Assembly (NCBI GenBank): GCA_026025075.1
Contig: JAPEUI010000102.1
Location: 1-57,071 of the forward strand
Source of the DNA: Vezdaea acicularis
Lineage: Eukaryota
Direction of reading: 5' to 3'
Length of the DNA stretch: 57,071 nt
The notes under the pieces were generated by a model. It ran no database searches. It worked only from the letters and a program-made list of their open reading frames with translations, and had not been told where the DNA came from. Position 1 is the first letter of the stretch; the number at the start of each line of letters is the position of its first letter. Position numbers and translations under genes: made by a program. Shown in pieces: positions 1 to 36,704 of this stretch.

Positions 1-63
1 GTGAGTTTACGCTTGCATAACCTTAATACTATGCGCAAGGCTTGGACTAATTGGGCGTAAGAG

Positions 64-1344
64 ATGTCAGCGGCGTTTGCCAGAACTTTGTATCTAAATA
101 CATCACTCGGCCGGATCTCGACCACATTTGACTTAAGGGAAACGCTGGACACCCGGAAAAACCACGGTTTGATTTTCCTAACATTGGCAATTCTGGCTGC
201 AGCTATCTTCGCACGTCTTCTTCCGTTCACTCTTACGGGCTGGCAAGGTTCTCTCTCTAGAGCTGTTGCGAGTATGGCAACGGCACCTAAATACAGTCAT
301 GAGCTAGAGATAGCCTCACTTGCTGTTCAAAAAGCGGCATTGGTTACCAAGAAAGTGTTCAATGAAAAGGTTAAAGCTACAATTACAAAAGACGACAAGT
401 CACCTGTCACTTTAGGGGATTTCGCAGCGCAAGCAATTATTCTCCACTCGATTCATAAGCACTTCCCTGACGATGAAATCGCGGGCGAGGAAGAGTCTAC
501 TGATCTTAGAAAGAATGAAACGCTCCAAGAGCAATTGTGGGAGCTTGTGAAAGATATTCGGCTTGATGCTGATGCAGAGAAAATCTTGGGAGAGCCCATA
601 AGTTCCGTTGACGACATTCTTGAGGCCATTGACGCTGGGAACAGCAGTGGCGGTGCAAAGGGGAGGATTTGGACGATAGATCCAATTGATGGAACGAAGG
701 GTTTCCTTCGAGGGGGCCAGTACGCAATCTGTCTGGCTCTTATGGTCGACGGCGATGTGAAGGTCGGAGTTCTTGGGTGTCCTAACTTACCTGTAGACGA
801 CAATTCTCCTCTGGATTCCAAGGCGGGAGAAAGCCAGACAGACGGGGAAGGCAAAGGGGTTCTTTTCTCTGCTGTTCAGGGGCATGGCGCCACAAGTCGG
901 CCCATCGGCCGTGGCCTACTTCAGCCTGAACAAAATATTTCGCTCAGGCCAATTTCTGATGTGAGGCAAGCAACTCTTTGTGAGAGTGTCGAGGCCTTGC
1001 ATTCAAAACATGACGATGTCACCAAGATTAGCGCCAAGCTTGGGATCGAAAGGAGCGTTAGAATGGACTCGCAGGCCAAGTATGGTTCTATTGCTAGAGG
1101 CGCCGCTGATATATTGTTAAGGTTGCCGACAAGTATAGCGTACCAGGAAAAGATCTGGGACCATGCTGCAGGGTATCTGATAGTTAGGGAGGCTGGGGGA
1201 GAAATATCTGATGTCTTTGGGAAAAACTTGGATTTCAGTAAGGGAAGGACGTTGATCGGAAATAAGGGGGTCATTGTTGCACCAAAAGCAATTCATAAAC
1301 AGGTCCTTTCAGTCGTCGGGGAGGTCTTCCAGATGCCAACATAG
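64..1344 (+). CDS. MET22: 3'(2'),5'-bisphosphate nucleotidase (Met22/Hal2, inositol monophosphatase family)
   Basis: Motifs KDDKSPVT, GEEES, WTIDPIDGTKGFLRGGQYA, RMDSQAKY, EKIWDHAAG. The conserved part starts near the ATG at 274. Positions 1-63 look like an intron (GTGAGT...CTAAT...AG), so the 5' end may lie outside the window. Confidence 0.95.
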   Translation: MSAAFARTLYLNTSLGRISTTFDLRETLDTRKNHGLIFLTLAILAAAIFARLLPFTLTGWQGSLSRAVASMATAPKYSHELEIASLAVQKAALVTKKVFNEKVKATITKDDKSPVTLGDFAAQAIILHSIHKHFPDDEIAGEEESTDLRKNETLQEQLWELVKDIRLDADAEKILGEPISSVDDILEAIDAGNSSGGAKGRIWTIDPIDGTKGFLRGGQYAICLALMVDGDVKVGVLGCPNLPVDDNSPLDSKAGESQTDGEGKGVLFSAVQGHGATSRPIGRGLLQPEQNISLRPISDVRQATLCESVEALHSKHDDVTKISAKLGIERSVRMDSQAKYGSIARGAADILLRLPTSIAYQEKIWDHAAGYLIVREAGGEISDVFGKNLDFSKGRTLIGNKGVIVAPKAIHKQVLSVVGEVFQMPT

Positions 1345-1436
1345 TTCCCATAATTTATCAAGCAAATGTTTGAAGATTACTTGATACCATGACAGTACAT
1401 GCAGATGATGCCCCATACTCCTCTGCGCCATTCAGT

Positions 1437-2283
1437 TTACTTTATCTTCTTGGCTTTAAGCTTGATGGTCTCCCCATTCACGAAGATTCCTTTTCCTTTA
1501 TATGGTTCCGGCTTCCTTTTCGCCCTGATCTCTGCCGCAAATTGAGTCACCACCTCCTTATCTACTCCTTCAAGCAGTATTCTTGTCGGCTGCGGACAGC
1601 TAGCCTTGACCCCTTTGGGCACCCCTAGCTCTACGGGATGAGAATATCCAACTTTAAGTACTACGAACGGCTGGCCTTGATACTTTTGAGAGACGGTAGT
1701 TGCTGTAGGCTCAACTGTAGCTCGGTATCCAACGCCAACGAGACGTAGAATGGCTGTATGGCCCTCAGATACGCCTAGGATGTGGTTGGATATGATGGCG
1801 CGAGTAGTGCCTAGCGAAATTCAGGGATGGAAGTATCGGGCAACAAATATGAGAACATACCCCACATCTCCCGTTGCTTTCGCTCTTCTCGATCTTCTAC
1901 AGTAACAGACGCTTTCTTTGATTGCTGGTCATGTTCGAATTTCATGTAGGGGGGTAGTGACAATGTCATCTTCCCTGCTGCGCGTTAGCTTGCCAATGTA
2001 GATCAGTCGTCCTCAGCAGCCTACCAAGCGGCCCTTCAATCTCCAAGGTAGATAGAGGCTCATTTCTACCTACCGCAGGGCCCTTGCGAGCTAGAGGCGG
2101 AACAACGCTAAGGTTGACTTCGGGTGGTATCGATAAAGGCGCACGGCCAATGTGAGAATGGCGTGGGGTTGATGAGGAGAATGGGCGCATCAGCGCAGGG
2201 GTAAGGAATAACGGCGGAAGAATTGATGACACTGTTGAAGCAAGTGCATGTTCAACGCAGCTCCGCTGAGCCGGACGTAACAT
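1437..2283 (-). CDS. MRPL6: Mitochondrial ribosomal protein uL6m, multi-exon
   Basis: Presequence-like N-terminus followed by SHIGRAPLSIP...EIEGPLG. The middle reads RAIISNHILGVSEGHTAILRLVGVGYRA. The C-terminus is RKPEPYKGKGIFVNGETIKLK. Introns near 1811-1860 and ~1975-2025. Confidence 0.93.
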
Positions 2284-2444
2284 ATTGCCGCAGGTGATTG
2301 AGGAGAGAGATGGAGGAACTGCGGGTTTGATCAGAAATATTAGGCGACATTCACGCGCCACAAAACATTGCCGCGGATAACTACTGTATATGGTTTCGGG
2401 TATCGTCCTCCGTATACTTGCAGATCCTGAACCTTCACCTGAAT

Positions 2445-3443
2445 ATGCAAGGCCTAGTAGATTATGGCAGCAGCGACGAAGACGAATCTGAGGACAAGGC
2501 CAACAGGATCAAAGACCAAGTTCAAGTAAGAACCCGACCTCTAATCAGCTCCATAAGCACCACACAAGAGCTGATAGCCCAGACCTAGACTCCAGAAACA
2601 CCACAGAATAACACCTCTACGATAGCAGGGTATGCAGACGGTATTCAAAAGCCCCATTTCCTGTATACGCACCATATTGCTGACATTACCCTAGTCTTTG
2701 AGACCAACGGCCATCCTAGCCCCAAACCTGCCTCCACACCAATAGAAGCTGCACATGTCCAAGGTCCCGTCCTGGGCCCTACAGCGCCCTCGCTCCCTCG
2801 AGCCGGAGCCACAGATGACAACCCTCCTCAATCACCTTACTCCCAAAACCGGTCCCTAGTCCACTCATTCACACTTCCTCCATATCCAGACCTCGATATC
2901 CCACCCTCACCCCCCGGTTCCCCTCCCGCCGAAACCACTGCTAAATTCGCGCAATTTCTCAAGCTTAAACGTCAGGGGACACACTTCAATGCACGCCTCG
3001 CCTCATCAACAGCCCTTGCGAACCCGTCACTCCTAGCGAAATTGCGCAGGCATGCTGGTATAGACGATAAGCAGCAATATGCCAGCACGCTTCCGAAGGA
3101 TGTTTGGGATCCCGATGGGTTCCCCGAGTGGGCATATAAAGAGGGCTTAGAGGAAGGAATGCGACGGGCGCAGAAGAGGAGGGAGAGGGAAGAAGGGGAG
3201 CGAGTGGAATTCGTGTCAAAGGGCTTTGAGGGCATACCCTTGCAGACTGATGACAAAGGGTCTGGGCCGGTCAGTGCAGCTGAGAGGGTCATGAGGGGGT
3301 TAGATAGGCGGAAGGCGAGCTCGAGGTCTCCAGCTGTGGTGGAAGGTACGGGAAAGAAGCGGGTCAGTCGCTTTGACGATAAGAGTAATGAAAGCAGTAG
3401 AAAGAGCTCTCCAGCAAGAAGGAAGAGGTCGCGGTCGAGATAG
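2445..3443 (+). CDS. HCNGP-like / SAP30BP-like protein, multi-exon
   Basis: Starts MQGLVDYGSSDEDE. Core reads DIPPSPPGSP...AKFAQFLKLKRQGTHFNARLASSTALANPSLLAKL...QYASTLPKDVWDP...FPEWAYKEGL, with an RS-rich tail. Introns at about 2526-2588 and 2641-2694. Confidence 0.8.
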
Positions 3444-5574: not shown

Positions 5575-8500
5575 TCAATCAGTGACACCGGTAGTATTTG
5601 TACCTCGCGCCTCTTCCGGGGGCACATCTAACTCGTTGTGGCCTCTGTCTAGTCTGACTGACTTCTCTTTACTTGGTGCCGTCTCCGCAGTGAATACGTC
5701 TGGTCGTCGTTTCTCAAACCAACCGCCCTTCTCCCATTCTCCTGGCTTATACAAGCATTCTACGCGCTTGTCATCTATGACAATGCCGGCAAGTAGCGTG
5801 TCGAGTCTCTTAAAGTCTACAGGTTTCAGGATCCATCCATCGAATCCAGCTGTGAGGTATTTCTCGCGTTCTTTTTCGAGAAGAGAGGCCGAGACAGCGA
5901 AGACAGGTACGCGTCCATTTAACGTTGCGCGGCGAGATAACGTCATAAGGGGATGGCTCTTCTCATATGAACGGATCATTTTTGTAGAAACGAGACCATC
6001 GACAAGAGGCATCTGCAAAGTCTGTCAGTAGGTTGATCTAAGCTATGGTAAGTCCATGACTCACCTGCATGTCCATGAGCACAACGTCGAAGAGGGCAAC
6101 CTTTTCGCTATAAAGTGTTGCACATTCTTCGCCGTTGACTGTCAATGTTACTTCATGACCAAGTTTCTCCAGTCTCTTCTTCATGATTTTGCTATTAATC
6201 GGATCATCTTCAGCGACTAATATTTGTAAGTTGTCAGCTGTAGGTGGAGCAGCACTCTGCCTGGCAGCCTTCGAGTCCATATTGAAGGAAACCCTTGAGG
6301 GAGGACTCAGTGGCCTGGTGACATCGACAGTATCACCAGGTACTCGCACAGCCTTAAGGGGCATCTTGGAATCCGCAATGACTTGCTCTCCAGGAGTGTC
6401 TTCTCGTGTAATTTGGAAGCGCTCCGGAACAACACTAGATCGCTGAGAAGAATCGCCAGGCCTAGCGTCACTTCCCTTCGATTTACTACGTCTCTCAGCC
6501 AATCTATTACCCCGCTCGCTACTCGGCCGAGAGACCATTTGAGGCTCTTGAATCGCACCAATCAATCTGTCAACATCGCTCATCCCGCTTCTGGCGCTCG
6601 AGCCGCTCTTCATACTCATAAGACTCTGAATGCTGTCAATGCTCCGCTTTCGTGTGTTCACATGTTCCTTTCCGCTCGTGGGAGGGGTCTTGAGACCGCT
6701 TGCTTGAACGTTGTTGATGAGCATAACTTCTCCTTCCGTAGGCGGTGGAGTTGTTGGACCCAAGCTGCTTCCCCCTATTGTCTGCGAAGGTACTCTACTC
6801 TCAGGCCTATCATGATGTGGAGGAAGCATAAAAGGGAGCTGAATTACGAAACGGGATCCTTTCCCTTCCTCAGACTTAAGTCGGAGTTGGCCGTTCATGT
6901 TTCGCACGACTCTAGACACGACTGCTAAGCCTAGACCCAACGGCGCTGTCCCTTCATTATCTGGGTTCAATGACTTTGAATCAGCAAAGGAGTCCTTGAA
7001 CACCTCGTCTCCCTCGGTCGAAACTTGCTCTAATGCTCTGAATAAAGACTCTAATTTCTTGACGGACATTCCTGCCCCTGTGTCCTGCACAATAATTTCA
7101 ACATCGACTCGGTCGTCATATTCATTTGCGATCCACAGTTCTACTACGACTGAGCCAGCAGTCGTATTCTGAACCGCGTTCGCAGTGATATTGGAGATAG
7201 CTTGTCTAACTCGTCGTTGATCACCCACAACCATCCTCGGGAATTCTGAATTCTCAATTACCTGAAAGTCAATACCTTTACGCTTTGCATCACCAACGAA
7301 CATATCGGTTGCTTCCTTAACGGTAGCAGGTAGATCAAAAATCTCATTTTTAATGAGGTTGCGGCCCTCTTCGGTCTTCGTGAGATCCAACAAGTCGTTT
7401 ATGACGTATATTAGAGATTTTGAGGCAGAATGAGATCGAGAAAGGTTCTCGCGAGTCTCAGGATCTAACGACCCTTCCAAAGCAATTTCGAGATAGTTGA
7501 TAATTGCGTTGAGTGGAGTTCGGACTTCGTGAGCGGAGTTTGCAAGCAGTAGTCTGGTCAACTGGCTTTTTTGCAGTGCAGCCTCCTTTTGTCGCCATAC
7601 GTCAATGAATTTGCCGTAAACAAGGCATAGGACCCCAGCAGTCTCAACTTGCTCTTCATTCCAGTCTCGGCACTTCCCTACGACTGTCTCACGCCATGTC
7701 TTAAAGCTGTTTCGAGGCTCAAGGGAACCATTCGTTCCTTCCTTGACGAATTTTTCGTACGGATTGCCGGCCCATGTCACTTCTCTTACTTGACTCTTGC
7801 GGAAAAAGACAATGAAATCTTCGCCATCAACCGAGAGAGGGACAAGAAGTAGGCCTGCAATGACCTGGAATCCTGGATCATATCGTAAATCAGGAAAATC
7901 CCCACGAATGTCACACGACGCTGTGACGGAAGTGAGACTCCTAACACGAAGGTATTCGAGGAGTGCAAGAGCTTCGTGTGATTGATCAAGGCTACCAAGG
8001 ATCTTCGTCTCGTCCCGAATGGAGAGTAGCCCAAAGTCAGCGTCAAAGAGTGCCAGAAGATCGTCTGAAGACGCCACAATGTAACCAGATGGGTTCCGCT
8101 CAGACGGCATAGTGTTGATCAATTTTCTCGCCTGAAGTCGTGAGGCATATGACAACCGCTCGATATTTCTTGAGGCAGAATCGCCAATAAGTCGACACAT
8201 CTTTCGAATGGGAAACGACACCCTCATGCCCTTGGTGCCATACCCGTGACATGCAACGAGGCCCCAAAGCTCGTTGAATGCAGTTATAGAGACTGACATA
8301 GAAGATCTTACTCCCATGTTGGTGAGGTACTTGATATGGATGGGTGACATTGCTCGAAGGTAGGATAGACTCAGATCGAGGGGAGTTTCAAGATCTTCCA
8401 CAGTTCGGCACACAAGCCGTGCCGCTTCTTGATCTCGGTCATAGAGAAGTCGAACTTTGTTGATTTTGTACAAGTCTCTAGCTTGCTTAGGAATGTCAGA

Positions 8501-9820
8501 CGCAGGAAAGTTCAGCCCCTTGTAGAGATCCTTAGTCGCCCTAGGGTCCACTAGTTCTGCGACTACACGACCATTCCATGCAGAATCGAATTGATAGATC
8601 ATGGCACGATGAAACCCGGTGAGCTCCTTCACGACACCTACCAAGACTTTGAGGAACTGGTTCAGGTTTGGGGCATTCGCCAGTTGTTCTTGTACTTGTG
8701 ACATAATGTTGAAAACTTCCATTGCTGCTGCTTCCCCTCTCCGCTTTCTTGCACTTCTCAGTATCCTTAAAGGCCGGCTTGCGATCACTGTACTCGCTGC
8801 AAACTCTTCATCAGTCGGTGCAAGCTGAAGTATGTCCTCAGGTTCCACCACTTCCGGTGAAACCAGAGGATTGACAGGGTCATCATCTAATTCAAACTCG
8901 CAGATGATGAGGTCTGGGTTTTTCGGATTGATGTGAATGGCGCACCAGAGCTTAAGGGTCCGTTTCTGAGGTGGTCTTATTGAGAGAGTGAAGACCTCAG
9001 GCCCACTTGTTGCTGGATCAGCATCATCATCTTTGATGAAGTCAAGGTGATCCAAAAGATTGTCAGCTTGGTCTTCTGATAGGATGTCAAGAAAATTATC
9101 GATAGCGAAGAGAGCTCTTGGCGAGTAACCGATTATTCTCTTCGAATTCTCGCTCACGACTTTAACCGACAACTTCCCTTCAACTTCTTCACAAAGTGCG
9201 ATCAAAAGCCCAAAGCCTTGCACTGCCCCTGGAATATGTATTGGCTCGTCCTCGCATCGTTGTAAGGTATCCCCATCTCGACCAGTAATCACTGCGTGGC
9301 CTTCAGCAGTTGTAATATGTTTGAACCTTGCTGTGACAGCTCCTACATCTGAGTCTTTAGCTTCTTCGCTTTCGACTGACCCTGCTTGACCATTTATCAA
9401 CAGCTTGTTCTCTCCACTGCTTTCAGTGCTTTCAGACTTTGTCGACCAACTGTCGCCAAAGATCCTGTTTGGAAGCCCACGATATAACGGAGTTGAAATC
9501 TTCCTTTCGTTACGGGGCCTTCCGAGGCCTCTTGTGGATATGTCTGGGTTAGTACTTTGCTGCTTAGAAGGTACGTGCATGGCGTCTGGGGCCTCAGACA
9601 TCTGCAAGCTGGCCTTGCTGCGTTCAAGAGATGATCGATTCAAGTCATTGTCTCCTGAGAATCCCCCGCTTGTCTCTTGTCGAGCTAGAGGGGCTGGCAC
9701 CGGGTCCACCGAGACGACTGATCGAATGGGGAATATGCGGTCGGCTACATCCGCTGTGAATGGTGGATTCGAAGCATTCGATGCCGGAGAATCCGGACCG
9801 CGAGAGTCTGAGCCCGACAT
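5575..9820 (-). CDS. fphA: Fungal phytochrome (PAS-GAF-PHY-HisKA-HATPase-receiver)
   Basis: N-terminal bilin-binding Cys in RCEDEPIHIPGAVQ; GAF motif FPASDIPKQAR; PHY tongue WAGNP...EPRNSF; H-box SAHEVRTPLNA; DTGAGM and GLGLA ATP-lid motifs; receiver VAEDD...LMDMQMP...WILKP. Intron 6013-6064. Confidence 0.97.
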
Positions 9821-10795
9821 TGCTTTCAGCCGGAGCTTTGGCTATGAAAGTTACCGTACTGAGAAGTCGTGCGTCAAGCTTCGCCCGATTGTGTATGCGG
9901 TATGGAAGGTGAGGGAGATAATTGTCGAAAAGGGCACAGCCCAATGGCCCTGTATCGGAAAAATTCTACTCTTCCAAGGTTCGTACACCGCATACCACAT
10001 AAGCGAACTATCAACTTAAAGGATAGGATGCTGAGCCATTGTGGGTCGTGGTTCGAGGGGCACTAAGCCTCATAAGTGGCTGTGTCGTAGCCTCGATCGA
10101 CGCAGGCGAGTCGAGTCGCGACAAAGTCAAAATTTCCTCTGTGGTTAGGCGGCCAGCATTTTGTAAGCTTAATTAAGGAGCAAAGGGTCTTCTTTGTTGG
10201 CACTAAGCTTCGATATCGCAGCAATGAAAGTTAGGTGGATAGTTATAGGTTCGTTTCTAAGGGTTGGTACATAGTGATATGCTTTAGACTATCTTTCTAT
10301 GATGCCCTATTAGTGGCCAAGATGGGATAGCGCAATCTGCAATCTGCATAACTTTCTGGGTCCGATTTCGTCGGTGGCGGCGGCACCAAACGCCGATGTC
10401 CAATCAGATGCCCTTGTCAGGGGGCACGGAGAAACCACCGCCACGTTTGATCCCACCAACGCCGTGACCAGGATCGGCTCGCTTGAGTAAGTTCGTGGCA
10501 TAAGAATGATGGAGTTTCGGTAACTCAGTGTGCTGTCAGCGTAAGTAAACTTGCGGTGCTTGGCCTCTTTTTGATCTGGGCACCTACCAAAACAGTCAGG
10601 GTGAAAGCATAATTTGTAACAAATCATACCTAATTAAGTATTTGAGCAATATTCCTGAATCTCTGGGAACCAGCCTTAACCTATCGTAATTGACGTCCAT
10701 GAAAGTGACCCCGCAGCCAACAGGTCCTTCTCCACCTATATGTCTTTGCTTTACCAGTCTTGCCAAACAAACAAATTGAACTATACTTCGAGACA

Positions 10796-12565
10796 ATGGC
10801 GCCTTCAAGGCGAATGCCCACCCTGAAATGGACAGCGAATGAACCATTTGTCGATGTCGATTCATTAGATGGGCGTCGCACCCTCAGAATGCTTGTTGCT
10901 ACAACCGATCCTTCAGATGCTGGCACAGAGACCCAGATCGTCTCTCGTATCTGGAAGAATAGTTGCCATAAAGGTATAGCTATGCGTACAATTCATGGTC
11001 ATCAGGAGTTTGAGGGATCCGAGGCATATGCGGATGAGTATGCCAGATGGGCGGATCTGTTGGTGGTAGCGCCCGTGCACTCTGATACGTTGGCGCGTAT
11101 GCTGCACGGAATCGCAGACAACCTGATCCTAAGAATTATAAGAGGGTGGGATATCTCAAAGAGGATCATACTTGTGCCCGGGATGTCTACACGTATGTGG
11201 GAGAACCCTATGACTAAAAAGCAACTGAGCAAGCTGCGCCGGAAATGGCATTGGGTTCAAGTCATGCAGCCGATCCTTTGGACGATCGAATGGCCTATGC
11301 CAGATGGTGAGGTTGTTTTCAAAGGAAAGACTGAGCAGTTCAAAAAGAAGTATGAATATGAGGGTCACGACGAACTGATAGAGACAATCGAATACCAGGC
11401 TGGCCTTATGAAGATGGGCCAGGACAACGACCTCACTCTAGCCAAGCCAAGCCCAGCATTTCAGGGGAATGCAAAGACAAAATTGAGATTGCCCCCGGAA
11501 ATCTGGACGATCATTCTTGAGTACCTCGGAGACTGGGAAATAGCAAATGCTTTGGGCATCTTTACGAAAATCAAACCACCGTTGAAGTGGCTTCCTCATA
11601 TCGAAAGCCCCAACTCTCTATCCTCTATGCAAAACCTAGAATGGATAATTCTTACACACCCTCTCGAAGACGTCGTGACTGAACTTGATAGAAATCCAGA
11701 GCCTCCATACCTTTCCCACATTTGCGTCGAGCTCATACTGAAGTTCAGCTGGATTGAACTTCTTGCACATCTAGAAGCTCATCACCAGGCCCTCTTCTTC
11801 TCCTCTTTTGGACAGACACTTATTCCAACCAAAGCGAGCGCTGTCTTTGGGAAGACTGCGGTTTTGGACTGGTGGAAAACATCCCCTTCCTTCCTGGCGA
11901 AAGAGTATACCGAAGAAGCCGTCAACGGGGCGTCGGGTGCTGGCTTCGTTCACGTCCTCGATTGGTGGCGTAAATCTGGATTGCCCATGAAATACAGCGA
12001 AAGAGCTCTTGAACAATCCTGCTCGCACGGCCATATTCACGTTCTAGAATGGTGGAAAGCCGAGAGCTCTCACCACGGCGCCTACTTTGTCGACAACTCG
12101 CCTTCGTCTTCTTCTCCTGCGCAAGACACTGCGGCGCAGAGAGACCCCCCACTGAAGCTCAAAGTCGGCAAGTCCATTTGCTTCGCCGCGCAAAAGGGGC
12201 AAGCGGACGTCATCCGCTGGCTACATGCCAGCGGCATCCCCTACTCGCATGAAGAGACGGTAGCGAAGATCGCGTCGGCTAGCGGACATACCAATATCTT
12301 GGAGTTGTGGAAAGAGCTGAAAGGCCAGAAGATGATCTTCGACAACCAAGTGCTTGTCGCGCCAACGAAGAATGGTCATGCGCATGTGCTGGAGTGGTGG
12401 AAGAATAGTAGCCTTAAGGTGGAATACAAGACGTGTGATATTGAGGAGGCACTGGAGGACTGCATTAATCCTGCAGAGGAGAGGAAGGTCAAATGCTGGT
12501 GGGCGATGAATGGGCTAAATTTGAGCGTCAGGACGAGCGAATGGATGCAAGTCAAGGTTCTGTGA
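10796..12565 (+). CDS. Flavoprotein (HFCD/PPC-decarboxylase-like) domain + F-box-like motif + ankyrin-like repeats
   Basis: Flavoprotein fold: WADLLVVAPVHSDTLARMLHGIADNL...IILVPGMSTRMWENP. F-box-like motif: LRLPPEIWTIILEYLGD. Repeated AS.xG[HF]xxVLxWW units are ankyrin-like. Intronless. Confidence 0.85.
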   Translation: MAPSRRMPTLKWTANEPFVDVDSLDGRRTLRMLVATTDPSDAGTETQIVSRIWKNSCHKGIAMRTIHGHQEFEGSEAYADEYARWADLLVVAPVHSDTLARMLHGIADNLILRIIRGWDISKRIILVPGMSTRMWENPMTKKQLSKLRRKWHWVQVMQPILWTIEWPMPDGEVVFKGKTEQFKKKYEYEGHDELIETIEYQAGLMKMGQDNDLTLAKPSPAFQGNAKTKLRLPPEIWTIILEYLGDWEIANALGIFTKIKPPLKWLPHIESPNSLSSMQNLEWIILTHPLEDVVTELDRNPEPPYLSHICVELILKFSWIELLAHLEAHHQALFFSSFGQTLIPTKASAVFGKTAVLDWWKTSPSFLAKEYTEEAVNGASGAGFVHVLDWWRKSGLPMKYSERALEQSCSHGHIHVLEWWKAESSHHGAYFVDNSPSSSSPAQDTAAQRDPPLKLKVGKSICFAAQKGQADVIRWLHASGIPYSHEETVAKIASASGHTNILELWKELKGQKMIFDNQVLVAPTKNGHAHVLEWWKNSSLKVEYKTCDIEEALEDCINPAEERKVKCWWAMNGLNLSVRTSEWMQVKVL

Positions 12566-12855: not shown

Positions 12856-14849
12856 TTAGACGACTGAGGTTTTCTCTTGTAGTCGATCAAGTTCATCCGC
12901 GAAGCGAGGCATGCTCAATTTGGGTACTTTGAGACGTCGTCTGTAGACTGCACTGATGAGTGACGCACTAAGGAATACACTCCCCGCCGCGGAAATAGTA
13001 AGAAAGACGTATCTCGAAACTCTATTTATTGCGAATCCGGACGGCGAGTGGATAGGCTCTATTGTAGCCATCAATTGATGGACGAAGTCGACGACGCCCA
13101 AGTTGCTGACAATGATGCAAAGTCCAGCCACTATGGCTATCAATCCAGCGGCTCGTTTACTGACCAGGGCGATGCCGAAGATAACAACCACTGACGGAAC
13201 CCAGCCAATCACAGACGTTCTAAGACCGTTAAACACACTTATTTCCTGCAACTTAATGGAGGCCTCTTCGATGCTGGCATGTAAATTCGCTGTGGTCTCA
13301 GACACTTGGGTTATCAGACCCTGGGCAATATGCATGTTTGTTCTGAATGCGTCGTGTAGGTCCACTTGTGATACCTGAGCCAGCAATCTTAGTATGTCAT
13401 ACGAGAGAGGTAGAGGTCTGGGCTGTTACTCACTGCCTGCGCATCCTGCGATGCCTGGAGTGATCGTGCTCGGTTCTCTAATTTCTCAAATGCGCCGTCT
13501 AGCTTGAAGATCCGCTCATCAAGGTTGCCCTGCCGGGCATATATGAGTGCTATGAGCTCCGTCGATGTATGCTAGTATTGCTTAGCTAAACTACACATTT
13601 GCACAATTCGTGACAAACAAACCAATTGCTCTTGCATATGCGCCAGCGCGCTAAGCAAATGGTTCATTTCTTGTCCCTGAATGCCGGATAGAGTTGACTG
13701 AACACCTAAAGCTGCCGCGTGGCTCTGTTCCCAGTCATGAGCTTGCATGGCAGCAAGCTCTGTACCTCTCACAAGAACATTTTGAAAGACTTTTCCAAGA
13801 TTCTTTTTGAGGCCGTCGACATCATGTTGAGAGCGTTGAATGGCCTGGGCAGTCAGTGAATTGTTGCGGAAACATATTCTCGCTTCATCTCACCTTGCCT
13901 AGGTTTTGGAAACTCTCTTCTGCTGCATCACCACTTGATTTTACCCTTCCCAACATTGAATCAATCGCAGCCTGAATGCGATGCAACGTGTTGCCAAAGT
14001 AATTGTCCGAGGTTGTTCGCATAGTTTCTAGATCGTGTAGCGTCTTCAATTGAAAGGCTCGAAGTGATTCCGCGAACTTCCCTTGGTCCTGAAGGTGCTC
14101 TCTGACTGTCTGAAGAACTTGAGCTGCGCCTGAAGTGAGGTCCGAAGTCAGATCTGCCATCAAATGGTGAATGCGTAGAATTTCATCTAAATATCAAGTC
14201 CTTTAGCTTTGACTGATTGATGACACGAAGACGCCGTACCTTTGTCGATTTCAATTCTTGCAGCTTGGCACATCACTGCAGCATTCTGTCGGCCGTTGCT
14301 GTAGCTCGTCCACCATTGCGGTCGAGTTTCCAAAGCCTGAAGACATTGACCCAGCTGCTTTCCCTCCAGGAAGTCTTGGGGTATTCCCTTGATCCGAGGA
14401 TCAGGTATCAAGGGATGACACTGCAGGGGAACTGCTGCGCCCGCCCCAGTTAGCTCGCAAACTGCTAACCTTGCAGCATAGAGAGATTTAAGGTTCTCCA
14501 TCTTATGCCGAGATTCTGTGGACCAGTCCTGCTTTGGGCCATTGACTGAGTCCTTCGGCAAGCCTTCAAGGGACTGGCAAGAAGAGAGAAGAGAAGCCGT
14601 TGCAATACGATTGCAAGAGGGAGCCGACTCAAGTGAAAGTAAAATCTCATATGCTTTCCTGTATATTTCAGGTTGTTCAATGAGAGGAGTTTGAAGAAGA
14701 GATACCAGACCAGAGTTGGCAATTGTTCCATGTGAGGCATCCGCAAGAATCCCAGGAGCTGGCTGCGATCCTGAGAAAAGAGCGGCGCAAGCCTGAACGA
14801 AGATACTGATGCAGGCCAAATTCCAAGTGTGCTTCCTAACGATATCCAT
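12856..14849 (-). CDS. KAR5: Nuclear membrane fusion protein Kar5/Tht1, multi-exon
   Basis: Signal peptide; Cys-rich domain SCNRIATASLLSSC...YAARLAVCEL...CLQALETRPQWWTSYSNGRQNAAVMCQAAR; coiled-coil exons; C-terminal TM segments. Confidence 0.9.
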
Positions 14850-15569
14850 ACTGCCTGAGGGTTAGCAGAAAAGCATGCACGGTCTTGTCCAGGCCTTTGA
14901 GAACCTTTCTAGTAAATATAGGAGCTAGCGGAAGATTTGTGGTCAGTATGAAGAAGAGAAGGAGACTGTGGAGAAATTCATCTCAGGAGAATGTATGGAT
15001 TTAGCGGTCGGCTACGGAATATTGCGCGAGGACGGCGAAATGGTCATTGGGATATGCAGGAGCGACCCAGGATATCTTGCCGCCAGGCGCAAGTGGGCAA
15101 ACTTAACTCACGCTAGGGGCTCATTCAGATGTTCTTCCTAGCGGCTAGGGAATGATACCTGTCTGTATCTTATATTGGAGCCATGATTGCCGCCCTATGC
15201 TCAGTACGCGAAGTTCGAGCTCGATACTCAAAGTTATACTCTCCCCTGTTGGAAAGCATATCGTTTCGACCTAGCTATGACACTTGTCTGAGTCATCTAG
15301 GTTGACTGCTTAGGCTTTCCGAGAACATTGGAAGCATCCATTGATCGTGTTCGCGGCAGCTAAGAGCGGAGTTGTGTTTTGGGAACAGAGTGGTGTTGAT
15401 ACTCACAGTCCTACTCTTACCGAGCAGGGGTGGACACTAGTGCAATAAGCGAGGCAGCTACAGACGCGCACTCGCTGGCTGGACCACAGCCCAGCAAATC
15501 GCCTTTCCTCTCAACTACAAGCTTAGATCCTTGCCTTTCTCTCTACACATTCACCCCGAAAGTATCAAG

Positions 15570-25409: not shown

Positions 25410-27638
25410 ATGAATGGAGTCAAGGGCGCTCAACTGTCTTCTCTCCCACCTCCCCCTCCCCCACCTGAGCCACAAGCACCGGAGAGACCATCATCTCCAC
25501 CACCACCTCCGCCGGACCTTAACCCGCCGCCTCCCCCCCCTCAAGATGCGCCCCCACCACCACCGAAACCCAAAACCCTATCCAAAGGGCCCATAAATAT
25601 AGAGGAGCTATTAAAGAAGAAGGATGTCACGAAAGCGAGGTATATCTCTAAAGCGCAGCGGGAGAAATTGGCAGCAGCCAAGAAGGAACTGCCACAGAAT
25701 GGCGTTAAACCGACAAATGGAATGGTGCCACAGAAAGTGACGCATATTCCGACTGAGCCCGCTGCAATGCGTTCACAGAATCGCAATAAGGCTGATATGG
25801 CGCCACCGCCTCCTCCATCTACGAATGGCGCGTCGAGCTTAGGTAACAAGAAGCGCCCGGCGGGGGATATCACTGAGGCTGAGATAATCCGACAAAGATA
25901 CATGGGTGCCGACCAAAACCAATCGACGTTCTCAGCAAAGAAAAAGAGGCGAAGGACGACGGAGAAGAAGTTCAATTTTGAGTGGAATACAGAGGAAGAT
26001 ACCAGTCCTGACTACAACCCACTATATCAAGAGAGGCAGAGAGCTTCACTCTTCGGGCGAGGGCGATTAGGAGGATTTGCTGATGACATAGCCAACGGTG
26101 GTGCCAAAGACTATGCAAGAGCACTGGAGAGGAGGGACTCGGAGGCAGGCTCCGCGCGTGCGAGGGAACTGTTGGAGATGGAGAGACGACGTAGGGAAGA
26201 GTCTGGCAGAGCAGCACTAGACAAGCATTGGAGCGACAAGAGGCTAGAAGATATGCGAGAGCGTGACTGGCGGATATTCAAGGAGGACTTCAACATCTCC
26301 ACCAAAGGGGGCGCTATACCAAATCCCATGCGCAACTGGAAAGAGTCGAATCTCCCTAAAGCGCTTCTCGATGTTGTCGCGCAAGTTGGCTACACAGATC
26401 CGTCGCCAGTCCAGCGAGCCGCCATTCCAATTGCCATGCAATCCCGGGATCTCATCGGCGTGGCTGTTACGGGCTCCGGAAAGACCGCCGCCTTCTTACT
26501 CCCTCTCCTAGATTACATCCTCGACCTCCCAGCCCTGAACGAGTCAACAAAGAATGCCGGTCCCTACGCTATCATCCTCGCCCCAACCCGAGAATTGGCG
26601 CAGCAGATCGAGCTTGAGGCCCGAAAGTTTGCAACACCTCTCGGCTTCACCTGTGTCAGCATCGTCGGCGGTCACTCCCTTGAAGAGCAAGCCTACGCCC
26701 TCCGCGACGGCGCCGAAATCGTCATCGCCACCCCCGGCCGTCTGGTCGACTGCATCGAGCGCCGCCTTCTCGTCCTCGGCCAATGCTGCTATGTGATCAT
26801 GGACGAAGCTGACCGCATGATCGACCTCGGCTTCGAGGAGCCTGTCAACAAGATCCTCGACGCCCTCCCCGTCTCCAACGAAAAGCCCGACACCGAAGAA
26901 GCCGAAGATGCCGAGGAAATGCGCAAGCATCTCGGCAACCGCAACCGCTACCGCCAGACAATGATGTACACCGCGACCATGCCCGCCGCCGTCGAGCGCA
27001 TCGCCAAGAAGTACCTCCGCCGCCCCGCCATCGTCACCATCGGCAACGTTGGCGAAGCCGTCGAGACCGTCGAGCAGCGCATCGAATTCGTCGCCGGCGA
27101 GGACAAGCGTAAGAAGCGCCTCGGCGAGATCCTCGCCTCGCGCGAGTTCCAACCCCCCATCATCGTCTTCGTCAATATCAAGCGTAACTGCGACGCCGTC
27201 GCCCGCGATATCAAACACATGGGCTTCTCCTCTGTCACCCTGCACGGCGGCAAGACGCAGGAGCAGCGAGAGGCCGCCTTGGCGTCTGTCCGCTCTGGAC
27301 ATACGGACGTGCTCGTCGCCACCGATCTGGCGGGCAGAGGTATTGACGTGCAGGATGTCAGCTTGGTCGTCAACTTCAATATGGCCACGAATATCGAGAG
27401 CTACACGCACCGCATAGGCAGGACGGGTCGTGCGGGTAAGAGCGGCGTGGCCATCACGTTCCTTGGAAATGAGGATACCGACGTCATGTATGACCTCAAG
27501 CAGATGCTGATGAAGTCGGAGATCTCGCGCGTACCGGAGGAGCTGCGGAAGCATGAGGCGGCGCAGCAGAAGACGGTCAAGGGCGGGCAGAAGAAGATTG
27601 AGGAGAGCTCCGGGTTTGGGGGGAAGGGTGGCTGGTGA
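25410..27638 (+). CDS. PRP28: Pre-mRNA splicing DEAD-box helicase Prp28
   Basis: KFNFEWNTEEDTS, MRERDWRIFKEDF, AVTGSGKT, PTRELA, DEAD, YTATMP, HRIGRTGRAG; Pro-rich N-terminus. Intronless. Confidence 0.96.
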   Translation: MNGVKGAQLSSLPPPPPPPEPQAPERPSSPPPPPPDLNPPPPPPQDAPPPPPKPKTLSKGPINIEELLKKKDVTKARYISKAQREKLAAAKKELPQNGVKPTNGMVPQKVTHIPTEPAAMRSQNRNKADMAPPPPPSTNGASSLGNKKRPAGDITEAEIIRQRYMGADQNQSTFSAKKKRRRTTEKKFNFEWNTEEDTSPDYNPLYQERQRASLFGRGRLGGFADDIANGGAKDYARALERRDSEAGSARARELLEMERRRREESGRAALDKHWSDKRLEDMRERDWRIFKEDFNISTKGGAIPNPMRNWKESNLPKALLDVVAQVGYTDPSPVQRAAIPIAMQSRDLIGVAVTGSGKTAAFLLPLLDYILDLPALNESTKNAGPYAIILAPTRELAQQIELEARKFATPLGFTCVSIVGGHSLEEQAYALRDGAEIVIATPGRLVDCIERRLLVLGQCCYVIMDEADRMIDLGFEEPVNKILDALPVSNEKPDTEEAEDAEEMRKHLGNRNRYRQTMMYTATMPAAVERIAKKYLRRPAIVTIGNVGEAVETVEQRIEFVAGEDKRKKRLGEILASREFQPPIIVFVNIKRNCDAVARDIKHMGFSSVTLHGGKTQEQREAALASVRSGHTDVLVATDLAGRGIDVQDVSLVVNFNMATNIESYTHRIGRTGRAGKSGVAITFLGNEDTDVMYDLKQMLMKSEISRVPEELRKHEAAQQKTVKGGQKKIEESSGFGGKGGW

Positions 27639-30600
27639 TGGCTTTGGTGCTGCTTGCTCAGTCTCGACCGCAGCCTTGGGGGCTGCTTCATCTAATATTT
27701 TCAAGGCTAATACTCCTCATGAAAATAAAACTTCTGAAAGTGGGAAATGTGATTCCACCGTGAACACGGCATGTATCTTTAGTAAAGCATCGTCAAGACG
27801 TTCAAATTATTGTTATACTAATAATATCTACATCTTGACGCTAATGTCATGGTTGCCTTGCTTTAGACTCAGTTACGCTGCATGATAGGTGTGTGCACCT
27901 CGTTGTGACGGCTCTACGTGACCAATGCGTAGAGACTATTGAAATATCTCTGCGAAACCTTCGTAAGCATCATCGTAGTAGTGCTGGCGCCTCGTAGAGT
28001 CCCCATGGTTCAATCCTGAGGCTCTAAGGGGTGGTAGAGGCTAGAGCTTGTAACAGGCAAAGTCAGATAGCGTGATGTATAGTTCGTTTCAGGTGTATGA
28101 TTGTCACTTCAAGGCCTACTAGTCTAAATTGTAAAGGGCCACATATGGGGGTTGATGGAACGGGTAAGTATGTTAGTCGCGCGGCAGCAGTAAGCAGTAC
28201 CAAAAACATGTCGAACTACTAGCACAGAGGACGCCGGCGACTAGATGAGGGCGGTCGGTAGGGCACTAACCCTGCGGCAAATACGACCTTAAGTGGAAGT
28301 AAAGACAAGAGGACGAACCCTTTTAGAACACAAATAGTGTATTTGAATTGTGATTATTTCCCGGAGGTGATGGGTCTGGGTCAGAGTTCGAATTGGAAGT
28401 AGAAGACGGGCGGTGGAGGGACATGCTAGGGAGCTTAAGGGGAAGAAATCGCCTGTGAGATGTTTCCGTCGTCTCGTACAAATTTCGCTTTCAACGCATA
28501 CATTGAAGAAGTGTGATTCAAGCCTCTACCCGGCTTTCATTATTTCGGCACCCCCCATCTTCATATGTCGAAAGGGTTTGACCATAACCTAGAGTTTCTT
28601 TCGTATTCCAAGTTTGTTGTGGCAGACACTGAGGTCCTTGCAAGGCGTCATCGGAGAGCAGCTGCCAAGAGTGTTACCGGGTGCCGCTCTCTGTCACGTC
28701 TTACCACTGCCATACCCTACAACGCAATGAGTTTATGGACGACATTCAGGACCAAAAACATACGACTTACTTGAGTTCTCTCCTTTGTAGAGATTGATTC
28801 TCATAATAGCTTGTATCACGTCGTGATGAGAGAAGCAACGAAAGGTTTCCGTTTCCTTGAGAAGAGAGTCCAGTCTCATCTGGCTCTGCGCAATGGCTAG
28901 GCAAGGACTGATGAGACAACAGTCAGACTAATTTACTCCCACGTCTTTCAACGTTGTCACAGGCTAGCCATGGATCCAAGACAAACGTTCTGAGCCCTTG
29001 GTGAGGTAAGGTCACTCGGGTGTGATGGGTTCCGCGACCTGTGGAGAAGAGGTACAAACCGAGGCGAATGCACCATCAAATGATCATTTCTCGACTGTGG
29101 AAGACATCGGGAGGCACATATTCCTTTACTGGAACCGATGGAGCGCTGCTGGGTGGGAAAGAGAAGCATCTGGCTCGGAAGATACGGTCGGTACGAAAAA
29201 ACAGACTAAAGGCGACAGGAGCCCCTGAAAGTTGGCTCGAGGGCGTGAACCAAAAGGATAGCAATTCAAAGCATGCTTCAGATCAGAGAAGAATAATATT
29301 CGTTGTCTTGAAGGAGATGACAACAGGTCAACAGCTCATACTAGGGCTCTGGTAAGTCGGCCGAGACATGAAGGCGGCGCCAGATCGGGGCAAGAGCTCC
29401 TGTCTTAGAGCGAATGCTTATGGCGCCTCACGGTTACTACTGTGGGAGAAAGAATGCTGCAGAAGAAGACATAGTAGGGCTGAGGACAACTCAACCATGG
29501 TGTTGCGTTGTCGCCTGGAGCTGGGGGACCTGATCGAAAAGGCCTAGAACATCGACAAAGTCGAACGCAAAAAGTGAAGAGAGGGAACGGAGAGAGAAGA
29601 AAACGTGACCGGAGAGATGAGGGATGTTCTGGAACTTCAGGGTCGGCGGCGGAGCGCAGCGCCGCTCTGCTGTGTGGACCCTGAAATGAAAGGATCCCGG
29701 TCGAAACTCGCGTGGCAAGAAGGGAGAGAGGCAGATGACCGATAGCAGACGGCATCGACAGAGGCGTTCATGGGAATATTGGGTCAGAGCTTTTTTCCGA
29801 TACACATCCAACACGGACCCTGTCCAGCGGCAAGCTGCCGAATTTGCCGGTGAGAGGATCGGGGTGCCATAGGACTCAGGTCGAGACCTCGCCCGTTGGT
29901 GGCCCTCCAAGCTTTCAGCCACGTGCCATGAAATTGCCTCTTTCCTCTTCTCCAAAACCATCACGGGCGACAGAAGAAGGGGAGCGTTCGTTGGGTGCGG
30001 ATTGCACCCTTCTTTGAGTGCCTCGTATCAAACAAGACTGCCTTGCGCTGGGAACAAGAGAGAGAGACGTCGGGTCGTTCCATCTAGACCGTCAGCGACG
30101 GCGTTCGCTTCGAGGCTCTAGTGCCCCTAAGTGTGTGATCGGCAAGGCCCCACCTCCAGCCGTTGTTCGAAGCTTTTGAAGACCTTCTAAAGGGAGGGTA
30201 AGCGGGGATCCAAGCAGACATTCACGCCGTGGCGACCAGGCGACCATGGATGGCCAACTCGGTGATACCACGTACGCAGAGTGTGGAGTTTTCAACCGAC
30301 GCACGCAGGAGGTTGAAGTTGGAGTTGGAGTTGCGCTGCTTCGAGACCAGTCGATTCCGGCTCGATGCGACAAGCGAGAGCGCGAAAAAGACCCGCAAGG
30401 GTGCAGGCTCCCACGAGCCTCTCGCTCCACAGATCATGGACAAGGATCGCTTGGTGAGGAGCAGGCGCTGAAGAACGGGCGTTCGAACGGGTCGAGATGG
30501 AAAATCCGATGACCCGCCTCCACCGAGATTCGCAATCCGCATGTCGGACAAGGGCCATGACTGGGTGCGCTGAACCGTCAAAGGATAGAGGCGGAGGCTT

Positions 30601-32370
30601 TATTGATCTGAACGGGCGTCTCCCGCTAGAGCGTGAGCACCATCAGTAGTGTGCTATTGAGGTAAAGGTAGCAAAGCTCCCTCCACTCACAAAGGGGTGC
30701 GAGTTCTCGCTTCAACATTCTCGACCTGCCGCTTCGAATGAGCTTCCAGGACTTGAGGTAGGCTGACGCCATTTTGGGACGTGGAATGTCGCTCAACGCT
30801 TCGGGTTGTAGTCCAAGATTGATGTTTGCGAGATCGAAAGCAGGAGGACGAGCGTGCTCTGACCGTCTACAGTAGCCGTGGTCAGCTGACGGAACATTCG
30901 CATTGCACCTGTACTCGACAAGGCGAATAGATGACGATGCTTGTGCGACCGAGTCGACTAATGCCGCTCTTCATTCCTCCGCACGCTGTTCCGCATGGTG
31001 GGCAGGATGGGATTTGTGCTGCTCAGGCCGTGTCACGGTGAAATATCGATGTCTGATAAGGATGCGCACGGGCGTAACACTGACACGCCATCGATCAAGG
31101 CGGTGAGCCCCAATAATGACCGTTGATGTTCAAGAGCTGAAGGACCTGAACGCTCTGCTACATGACTTGGATCCTTTCTCATGTGGGGGATACTTGGCCA
31201 TCACCCTATCACGAAGCATGATGTTATGCTCGACAACGCCAGAGACTCGTGTTGGGCTCTTGCATGGGCCCATCACGGAGGGCAAGTTGCAGAGCTGCCT
31301 ACAACATTACATGCTCGAACAGAGAGGAAAGAGTCTGTCGATGCTTGCGATGGGCGGGCTGCTAGTGTACCTACCTGTCTTGGTTTGGTACTAGACGAAC
31401 CCGTCCGAGTCACTTGCTCCTACTCGATTTGTTCTCAGGAAGGCAGCAGCCACAACGACAGTCCCATCCATTCCATCTGCAAGGTGGGGGGGAACGATCA
31501 ACCATCCGCCTCACTCAAGCATATCCTCTCACGCTGCTCGAGAGAGCGGCGTGCAGCGCTCCATCATGGACGTCCTGCACGATAGCGGCGCTCACGCTCC
31601 CACTGGCCGTTTCACGTCGAATGCTTCATCACACGAGCCACCGACGTCAAACACAGCTCCCAATGCCCGATCCATCAGCAACAGCGATAGACGACCGACC
31701 AATAAATCGCGGCACAGGTTATGCCCACGCAATGCGTGGGCAAGGAAGGTGCGGAGCATTCCCCAAGCGTGGCGCTCGGGAGAGCAGCTGCCGACGATGC
31801 GACGCTTCAGCAAGGTCTCCGTCAGAGCGTGGGCAGTGCTGGCAAGCTGACGCCGTCAGACCAGACCAGAGCGGATTGGATTGTGACAAAGGCGTGTCGT
31901 GATAAGTTGGTCACGACCCTGCGCAGATGGCATCGCCGTGGTCGTCGTCTGGGGGAGATTTTCGATTTCGAGATTTCGAGATTAGAGAGTCGATTGATCG
32001 ACATGGAACCAGCAAATCGTCGCGGGGCTAGGATGAGAGAGGGCTAGCGGGCTGGCGGAAGGGGCCCTGCGGTAAGGGTTTCCCTTGGCATGGCCGTGCG
32101 AGGAAGGGGCCCCCCGCGACGGCGCTATACCTGGCAGGGGAGGAGATCGACAATGGACCGAGTTCTAGACCCCGCGCCTGCCCTGCATGGCGGCCGGTGG
32201 CTGGGCGCTGCGTCGGGAGCGAATTTCGGCGGTCGCGCCAATCAGGAGGTGATTGCTGAGTGGACGCAAGCGGCTGCCTTCTGCCTGACCGTCACGTCCA
32301 GCGCCGCGTTCCCTTACGCTACCACGTCGAACGCTGGGCAACTCGTCGCTCTCTCGTTCTTTCCTCTTGC

Positions 32371-32390
32371 GACTCGACTCGACTCGACTC
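32371..32390. repeat. (GACTC)4 microsatellite in the CT-rich leader upstream of the histidine kinase
   Basis: GACTCGACTCGACTCGACTC read directly from the sequence. Confidence 0.8.
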
Positions 32391-33067
32391 ACCCCAAACG
32401 GACTCACTCGCTTCCGCCTTTTCACTCCCGCGCCGGCTCCTCTCGCTCGTCTGCTCGATCACTCGGCTCGAGAGAGCACGGGCTCCATCTCGGGTTACGA
32501 CCCAGCGAACATTGCCGACCCCTTCCCTCGCCCGTTCGATGACGCCCATTCCTCCTCTCCCGACTCTCAACGCCCGTCCATCGGTGACTTTCGGCATGTC
32601 TTATTCGATGCTGCGGATCGTAGCACCGACGCGCAGTTGAGAGCTTTGGGCCCTCTTCTTTCGACCCCAACTGCCCCGCACAATCTGCCCCCGTCCAAAC
32701 TTTTCCTCTTGACCTCAACCTGAACAGATCTACCGTCGGTGCCATCCAGCCCCCCCCGCCCAGAACCCTCCTGTGAACTCTGCCCACCCCCTCATCCTCC
32801 CCCCCTTTCTTTTGCTCTTTCGTTGGCCACATTTCAGACGCTTTAGAGTCTTAGAATCATTATTGTGGTGGCGGCGACGATCACGACGAGGAGACGAGGG
32901 GTCCGTCGATGGCATTATCTGCCGAATAACACAACCTGCTCGAAGTTCATTTAAAGGTCGAGCTGCAGGGTACGGGACCTCTTGTTTAGGTCAGGGCCTT
33001 TCGCTTCTATTCGACATCGAAAGGACCCCAAGCTGGCAGACGGAAGCCAGCCTGGTTGAGCTTGGGC

Positions 33068-36624: not shown

Positions 36625-36704
<80 letters not shown>
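36625..36704. repeat. 80-nt G homopolymer
   Basis: Uninterrupted G run read directly; it may be an assembly artefact. Confidence 0.9.

Follow-up and report, generated by a model that had tools for sequence, protein, structure and literature searches.

A pseudo-PPCDC/ankyrin protein with an F-box-like motif is encoded head-to-head with phytochrome in four classes of fungi

The phytochrome gene of Vezdaea acicularis stands head-to-head with a gene whose 589-aa product joins a Hal3/PPCDC (HFCD) domain stripped of its catalytic residues, a motif resembling an F-box and a stack of ankyrin repeats, and this pairing, analyzed here in a window of 57,071 nucleotides (contig JAPEUI010000102.1), recurs across four classes. 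The reading that we favor, tentatively, is that this neighbor is an adaptor of the SCF type whose scaffold is a pseudo-PPCDC, and that it is co-regulated with the phytochrome and is no photoreceptor itself. The partner family, conserved across Dikarya, appears to be uncharacterized, and a literature search found no paper on it or on the phytochrome-partner pair. The known partners of fungal phytochrome are few in the review passages that treat them (PMC10813442), and a gene that has stayed back-to-back with phytochrome in four classes makes a ready candidate.

The phytochrome gene lies on the minus strand. Its first exon (6065..9820, with the ATG at 9820) encodes the N-terminal extension, the PAS-GAF-PHY region, the histidine kinase and the start of the receiver; a 52-nt GT-AG intron (6013..6064) falls inside the receiver domain, and exon 2 (5575..6012) carries the remainder of that domain and the stop codon. 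The 1397-aa product is intact, without internal stops, and of the FphA type: it matches the Pfam families PAS_2, GAF, PHY, HisKA, HATPase_c and receiver, and contains the bilin Cys189 (codon at 9256, in exon 1), the DIP and PRxSF motifs, the kinase H-box and the receiver motifs, giving the PAS-GAF-PHY-HK-RR order and N-terminal bilin Cys by which fungal phytochromes are recognized. In this full domain set and bilin Cys it resembles the FphA-type phytochrome of Aspergillus, and over residues 160-1000 it is 74-78% identical to the phytochromes of lichens and other Pezizomycotina. It differs from paired relatives in a shorter N-terminal extension, with 27 aa before RIFP compared to 58-86, and is otherwise ordinary.

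The neighbor gene is a single exon on the plus strand, one open frame that runs from the ATG at 10796 to the stop codon at 12565 (10796..12565). The two start codons are 976 bp apart, confirming the head-to-head geometry proposed in a first-pass annotation of this DNA, and the 975-bp divergent spacer between them (9821..10795) is presumed from that geometry to be a shared bidirectional promoter. The same annotation had divided the neighbor protein into a flavoprotein domain, an F-box-like motif and ankyrin repeats, and this three-part layout was borne out.

Of 26 informative metagenome clusters, 14 have the head-to-head pair, as do the window and two named genomes; together these span four classes, in a sample with no Eurotiomycete locus. 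In Pycnora and Sclerophora, phytochrome and partner have consecutive accessions. The pair has been both inherited and lost: it is absent from 12 of the 26 clusters and from all 11 Leotiomycete/Sordariomycete-like rows, and four or more changes of its state are seen on the tree. Leotiomycetes keep both genes, separated (in Hyaloscypha and Stipitochalara they lie on the same scaffold, ~260 accessions apart), and those of Chaenotheca are on different contigs. Quick trees of the phytochrome and of the partner group the same loci. In addition, no other neighbor is common to so many loci; phytochrome alone is shared by the Lecanoromycete-like, Dothideomycete-like, Candelariomycete and Coniocybomycete loci. 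On its opposite, downstream flank the partner gene has neighbors that vary between clades and have changed many times. That the pair recurs in other classes points to more than chance, a judgment that is based on the loci compared rather than on a genome-wide background rate for divergent pairs. The pairing is old, the partner having already stood head-to-head with an FphA-type phytochrome early in leotiomyceta, and with conservation in four classes and matching gene trees behind it the adjacency noted in the first-pass annotation is no mere accident. A functional relation is more frequent among conserved divergent gene pairs of fungi, according to part of one study (PMC2871058), and the present pair is not among the rows shown of its gene-order supplement.

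Because the pair is conserved, the two trees are congruent and the downstream neighbors differ between clades, these comparisons argue for co-regulation. It could also be that the adaptor is unrelated to light and that the pair has persisted only because two promoters within ~1-2 kb are hard to split. Such an account fits the repeated changes in pairing state, the survival of both genes apart in Leotiomycetes, and locus L058, where another gene (panB) holds the head-to-head place beside the partner gene; other old neighbors also persist in places, KAR5, MRPL6 and MET22 being common to the window and locus L002. It does not readily accommodate a phytochrome that is the sole gene common to four groups of loci when the opposite flank was exchanged so often, and we consider it rather unlikely.

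Co-regulation is itself weakened because the pair is absent in many clusters and because no alignable or positioned cis-element common to the spacers was found across classes. The spacers of the other paired loci are 0.86-1.9 kb long. Across the spacers, GATC-type light elements show no enrichment (50 observed versus 53 expected). The sequence GCCAC, chosen after a k-mer screen, occurs 109 times versus 65 expected and is denser in the spacer than in same-locus non-coding DNA in 10 of 12 cases, scattered and with no flank consensus; locus L049, whose start codon is unplaced, was left out of this motif analysis. As a spacer element, GCCAC is a weak lead. A sigma-70 scan was set aside as inapplicable to a fungus.

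The HFCD-type flavoprotein domain is real and extends slightly beyond the ~10880-11290 first assigned to it, to residues 28-207 (10877..11416, plus strand). Pfam family PF02441 matches the window protein at E 7e-13 and is found in 71 of 72 family members, a fold search aligned the domain with Cryptococcus HAL3 (Z 16.0, rmsd 2.7 Å over 154 residues), and Hal3/PPCDC proteins are the nearest in sequence as well (E 2e-16). Catalytic His, Asn and Cys residues are named as required for PPCDC (PMC9604783). At the His position (H90 of AtHAL3a), His occurs in 0 of 159 sequences and the window protein has Ala79; at the Asn142 position of PxMNxxMW, Asn is found in 2 and Thr or Ser in 156 (Ser131 in the window), with the last Met kept in 155. 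The column of the clamp Cys (C175) holds Cys in a single sequence; 4 have one within reference positions 176-185 and 61 of 159 within the wider stretch 176-191, and the window protein has no clamp Cys. The family as a whole has none of the three features of an active PPCDC. Judged by these residues the domain is catalytically dead, and the databases, which label the family as active flavoprotein or PPCDC, apply in the latter case a name that cannot hold. Since the HFCD core stays conserved (mean 0.79 over residues 85-165) despite the lost His, Asn and Cys, a non-enzymatic scaffold is suggested.

The same alignment makes FMN binding doubtful. At the residues that we take to contact FMN, erosion has affected the N-terminal half of the site. 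The GSVA motif has its Ser in 48 of 159 sequences and Asp at the Ala position in 105, the Thr of VTK is found in none, alignment gaps replace the two-Trp loop in 158 and 156, and the window protein is short of ~25 more residues in this region. The C-terminal half is partly kept, with the Thr/Ser of the PxxAxT loop in 121 and, for PxM, the Pro in 154 and the first Met in 157. An Asp in the phosphate loop was considered as a bar to FMN and rejected, since FMN-binding PPCDCs carry one at either loop position (human, PLDANT; Cryptococcus, PCSADL).

These observations bear on the proposal, made in the first-pass annotation, of a fungal analog of ZTL/FKF1, in which an FMN-binding HFCD domain would let light or redox state alter the oligomer and so gate an SCF ligase controlling phytochrome turnover or output. 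The retained part of the C-terminal FMN half, a loop Asp that genuine FMN-binding PPCDCs also have, and the age of the linkage to phytochrome are compatible with it, as is rice OsHAL3, an FMN protein reportedly inactivated by blue light in the part of the source concerned (PMC12115001). However, the N-terminal FMN half is eroded, basidiomycete orthologs do without the HFCD domain, the pair was lost in several lineages, the spacers show no GATC-type enrichment, and the review passages on FphA name only VeA and LreB as its partners (PMC10813442). With the catalytic residues and the N-terminal FMN half gone, a ZTL/FKF1-like flavin sensor acting on phytochrome is unsupported, and so is a flavin-gated phytochrome module, as the core exists without the HFCD domain and the pair is broken in lineages keeping both genes; we find the mechanism improbable. 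Equally slim are the chances that phytochrome and neighbor make up a light module of two genes ancestral to leotiomyceta, in which the dead PPCDC would hold a flavin or CoA-pathway metabolite, act as a sensor, as is reported of rice OsHAL3, and gate an SCF ligase that sets the level or output of the phytochrome pathway. Were it true, fungal red-light signaling would have a ubiquitin arm tied to blue light, to redox state or to the status of CoA. For the HAL3 fold, a part in light responses would not be entirely novel, because OsHAL3 provides a plant precedent for blue-light sensitivity.

The fold also admits a reading centered on CoA metabolism, in which the neighbor is a regulatory pseudo-subunit of that pathway or a Hal3-like moonlighter that joins the PPCDC trimer, a CoA-synthesizing complex or Ppz phosphatase, with the F-box-like motif serving as an N-terminal ankyrin cap. 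HAL3/PPCDC proteins are the nearest folds to the domain, and in yeast the PPCDC paralogs Hal3, Vhs3 and Cab3, which are partly dead, assemble into heterotrimers and act as regulators of Ppz1 (PMC9604783, PMC6506691). Unlike Hal3 or Cab3, however, the neighbor provides neither half of an active site, and the window protein has neither the N-terminal BBxxxVTF motif nor the acidic tail to which Ppz1 inhibition is tied in Saccharomycotina (PMC9604783). The gene panB, for the first pantothenate enzyme, is near the partner gene in 3 of 42 clusters (in L058 it is head-to-head, and two Lecanoromycete-like clusters have it 6-8.4 kb downstream), but this link comes from two lineages and may be a remnant of regional synteny. 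A CoA-centered role also leaves the invariant LPxE of the HFCD-less orthologs unexplained, and it seems to us on the unlikely side.

The F-box-like element (residues 232-265; 11489..11590, plus strand) consists of an LPxE helix, a DWE helix, a short non-helical stretch and Trp265. Residues L232, P233, E235, D246, W247, E248 and W265 do not vary across all 72 aligned sequences, and the motif persists in HFCD-less orthologs of Sanghuangporus, Rhodotorula and Cronartium. Helices are predicted at 234-244 and 247-252, as expected for helices 1 and 2 of an F-box, and the third is absent from this prediction, which was made without a binding partner. F-boxes usually stand directly before a repeat domain, and so does this motif before the ankyrin repeats. 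Of the F-box-like segment described in the first-pass annotation, LPPEIW does start at 11489 in a near-invariant motif; what it shares with an F-box is a resemblance over two helices, with no Pfam match in the window protein even at E 10. Across the family the Pfam F-box cut-off is not reached (one of 72 members matches, at E 0.024), and sub-threshold F-box-like matches on the motif in four orthologs (E 7e-4, 8e-3, 0.095 and 0.16; best score 19.8 bits versus a cut-off of 24.3) span only profile positions ~2-24 of 47. Among 68 further WW-ankyrin relatives, one has an F-box match at E 0.5 or better. A profile of the motif (37 sequences) had no PDB match at E 10, a wider profile found only ankyrins among the best 60 of 81 matches, the fold searches, which barely covered this stretch, returned no F-box structure, and a regex for the complete F-box pattern found none in the fungal loci. 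Helix 1 alone is weak evidence, because a scan of viral contigs for its motif gave 37 loci that are mostly stop-interrupted chance matches; the motif profile had no clear match in 47 viral loci.

The lack of an F-box match above the Pfam cut-off and of a predicted third helix argues against the adaptor reading, which is supported by an invariant motif that persists in HFCD-less orthologs and precedes a repeat domain. On balance it is plausible, from sequence, that the motif acts as an F-box. The ankyrin repeats that follow are confirmed, in a WW-type stack longer than the ~11830-12500 first noted (residues 273-585; 11612..12550, plus strand); profile matches of the region are ankyrins, and the fold is recovered at Z 12.3 for residues 225-424 and Z ~15-16 for residues 273-585.

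If the neighbor is a co-regulated SCF-type adaptor, as we tentatively propose, its old core, common to basidiomycetes, would be a set of ankyrin repeats behind a shortened F-box, a non-catalytic adaptor that most likely docks on Skp1/cullin while the ankyrins hold a substrate for presentation. Basidiomycete orthologs have this F-box-like/ankyrin core without an HFCD domain, and in Pezizomycotina the core would have gained in front of it a dead copy of PPCDC, an enzyme of CoA synthesis, probably as an oligomerizing or partner-binding module that is neither enzyme nor photoreceptor. The shared spacer probably couples transcription of both genes, a coupling that would be dispensable; co-expression, like any light-signaling role of the neighbor, is inferred. 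If Skp1 is bound, the family would be an F-box adaptor that has been overlooked, one carrying a pseudo-enzyme module, and could link CoA metabolism to proteolysis.

Among known systems, the Hal3/PPCDC family (AtHAL3a, human PPCDC, Cryptococcus Hal3 and yeast Hal3/Vhs3/Cab3) has the same fold as the neighbor domain (Z 15-16), and the yeast paralogs are likewise partly dead, with a second, regulatory job. The neighbor differs in losing three catalytic positions at once, in its eroded N-terminal FMN half and in its fusion to an F-box-like motif and ankyrins; the words 'ankyrin' and 'Pezizomycotina' do not occur in a 2022 review (PMC9604783). A basidiomycete SAP plus ankyrin cluster shares the LPxE-DWE motif and a C-terminal signature with the neighbor, with a SAP-like N-terminus in place of the HFCD domain, and in giant viruses and chlorophytes there are F-box plus ankyrin proteins with the same WW-type repeats. 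ZTL, FKF1 and LKP2 are plant LOV-F-box-Kelch proteins, and the neighbor has their order of parts, a flavin-family domain, an F-box(-like) motif and a repeat domain. In contrast to them its F-box is shortened, its repeats are ankyrin rather than Kelch, its flavin binding is doubtful, and no PAS/LOV or Kelch family was found in it or its family at E 10 (Pfam). Rice OsHAL3 is a stand-alone HAL3, whereas the neighbor is an F-box-like/ankyrin fusion. The two have the HAL3 fold in common, and OsHAL3, in the part of the source that describes it, is reported to bind FMN and to have a non-enzymatic, blue-light-sensitive role (PMC12115001).

The phytochrome gene of the window lies on the minus strand and is complete, its two exons, separated by a 52-nt intron, encoding 1397 amino acids with PAS-GAF-PHY, kinase and receiver domains (Pfam) and a retained bilin Cys189. 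The neighboring gene (10796-12565, plus strand) is a single frame of 589 amino acids. The two ATGs are 976 bp apart, and the head-to-head pair described in the first-pass annotation is real. The window comes from a Pezizomycotina fungus, as do all named close homologs of these genes. Elsewhere in the window, a second hybrid histidine kinase (HisKA, HATPase_c, receiver) is encoded at 32990-35912 on the plus strand, and GC content is 0.53-0.61 across 26000-38000 versus ~0.47 elsewhere; this region includes an extended tract rich in G around 36700.

The HFCD-type flavoprotein domain and ankyrin-like repeats first proposed for the neighbor protein are borne out as folds. Pfam detects a Flavoprotein domain (E 7e-13) and, weakly, Ank_4, while fold searches with an AlphaFold model built from 72 sequences (mean pLDDT 86.5) match residues 27-207 to HAL3/PPCDC structures (Z 16.0, rmsd 2.7 Å, 154 aligned residues) and residues 273-585 to ankyrin stacks; residues 225-424, modeled separately, also match ankyrin (Z 12.3). 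Giant-virus and chlorophyte proteins carry repeats of this WW type too. The neighbor protein belongs to a large, unstudied family with an uncharacterized domain fusion: a homolog search gave 1173 matches among 8000 candidates scored, and the 120 matches listed carry only automatic names (hypothetical protein, flavoprotein, PPCDC-like).

The proposed F-box fared less evenly. A motif immediately N-terminal to the repeats contains residues invariant in 72 of 72 sequences (L232, P233, E235, D246, W247, E248 and W265), but Pfam finds no F-box in the 589-residue window protein, any F-box match at all in only 1 of 72 family members, and none in the family that reaches the cut-off; only two helices are predicted in this region. 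Many F-boxes end in tryptophan, and the invariant Trp265 resembles this terminal residue, lying nine residues after helix 2 in 62 of 72 sequences. Four orthologs that lack the HFCD domain give weak Pfam F-box-like matches on the motif, spanning the first half of the profile only. The motif is about as likely to bind Skp1 as not. The F-box-like motif and the repeats, along with the C-terminal signature, are retained in basidiomycete orthologs (Sanghuangporus, Rhodotorula, Cronartium), which lack the HFCD domain and several of which have a SAP-like N-terminus; we therefore infer that the F-box-like/ankyrin core predates the HFCD fusion and would need no flavin domain. In one database protein, P0238, a Skp1-like domain (E 3e-5) is fused with a shortened F-box-like/ankyrin segment; this is probably a merged gene model.

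PPCDC activity requires His90, Asn142, Met145 and Cys175, according to a review (PMC9604783). When the window protein, 119 homologs and 39 locus representatives were aligned (n=159), the His was present in 0, the Asn in 2, the clamp Cys in 1 and the Met in 155, identifying the domain, by sequence, as a pseudo-enzyme. Its core remains well conserved (0.79 versus 0.24 for the clamp loop), suggesting that the domain still does something. Among what we take to be FMN-contact sites, the GSVA motif, the VTK Thr (0/159) and the two-Trp loop (gaps in 158 and 156 of 159) are lost, and PxxAxT and PxM are present; human and Cryptococcus PPCDC likewise carry an Asp in the PxxAxT loop. FMN binding by this domain is possible, if rather doubtful. 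A light-sensitive HAL3 has been reported from rice (review PMC12115001). The flavin-gated ligase acting on the phytochrome that the first pass proposed is a minority possibility that we consider improbable. The window protein lacks, at ~11000-11015 (residues 69-73), ~25 residues of an N-terminal loop region present in most homologs, and sits on a long tree branch.

A synteny survey indicated that the adjacency has been inherited. The survey used the best 80 of 407 confirmed loci, and grouping at 90% identity gave 42 clusters. The phytochrome is head-to-head with the gene in 14 clusters, absent despite at least 4 kb of upstream sequence in 11, and 9 kb downstream in the same orientation in one; 16 clusters with <3.3 kb upstream were set aside, two of which have a different gene directly upstream. 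The downstream arrangement belongs to an early-branching Leotiomycete-like lineage (L003/L073) and looks like an intermediate after local rearrangement. By consecutive accessions, which do not give orientation, the pair is also adjacent in Pycnora (Candelariomycetes) and Sclerophora (Coniocybomycetes); the two genes are on different contigs in Chaenotheca, and ~260 accessions apart on one scaffold in Hyaloscypha and Stipitochalara.

Paired loci are placed beside Lecanoromycetes and Dothideomycetes by tree position, and the phytochrome and partner trees group the same loci. On a quick tree with some long branches (32 informative rows, 17 paired and 15 unpaired, from a sample containing no Eurotiomycete loci), at least four changes of pairing state are required and Leotiomycete/Sordariomycete-like rows are unpaired in 11 of 11 cases. 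The pair is real and old, and the simplest reading is a single ancestral pair followed by several losses, and the phytochrome may be gone entirely from some unpaired loci. A rival reading, in which the protein is an adaptor whose pairing is now a relic, we regard as unlikely. In fungi, a functional relation is more common among conserved divergent gene pairs (PMC2871058), which raises the odds of a functional link without proving one. The spacer is 0.86-1.9 kb in 13 paired loci with a placed start, and no alignable element was found between spacers of different classes in these loci. GCCAC, a motif chosen after the fact, is scattered through paired spacers, including window 9821-10795, at ~1.7-fold over expectation.

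The opposite flank of the gene differs by clade (KAR5, Dbf4, Nol10/Enp2, vigilin and others), and regional synteny survives in part, as seen between the window and L002 and in panB. The Acarospora-like locus L002 has the same MET22/HAL2-like, MRPL6-like and KAR5/Tht1 neighbors as the window (61-2508 and 12856-14861), although their order is rearranged. Two unpaired loci of different clades (L017:17107-20961, minus strand, and L058) encode an AZUL/HECT ubiquitin ligase ~7 kb downstream of the gene. In 3 of 42 clusters (best 80 of 407 loci), the pseudo-PPCDC gene has the ketopantoate hydroxymethyltransferase gene panB/ECM31 nearby: head-to-head in L058 (7943-9022, minus strand), where the phytochrome is absent, and 6-8.4 kb downstream in two Lecanoromycete-like clusters (those of L006 and L042). 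Together with PPCDC ancestry, this proximity leaves room for a role in CoA regulation, but the panB link is based on two lineages. The reading of the protein as a regulator of CoA or Ppz, its F-box being vestigial, is in our view unlikely.

A full-text literature search covering few subscription journals turned up no paper on the family and none on the pair, which is apparently unreported, and Skp1/cullin pull-down tables could already include an ortholog. In supplement file 4 of PMC2871058, none of the 8 places mentioning 'flavoprotein' is this pair, coverage of 'phytochrome' extending to 2 of 4 places. Our tentative and most likely reading is that the neighbor would work as an SCF-type adaptor, transcribed from a spacer shared with the phytochrome, in which the dead PPCDC domain would oligomerize or bind a partner and which would itself do no light sensing. 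The protein belongs to the HFCD family by fold, yet is not an active PPCDC, and it resembles ZTL/FKF1 in layout but is not a member of that group, having neither LOV nor Kelch domains.
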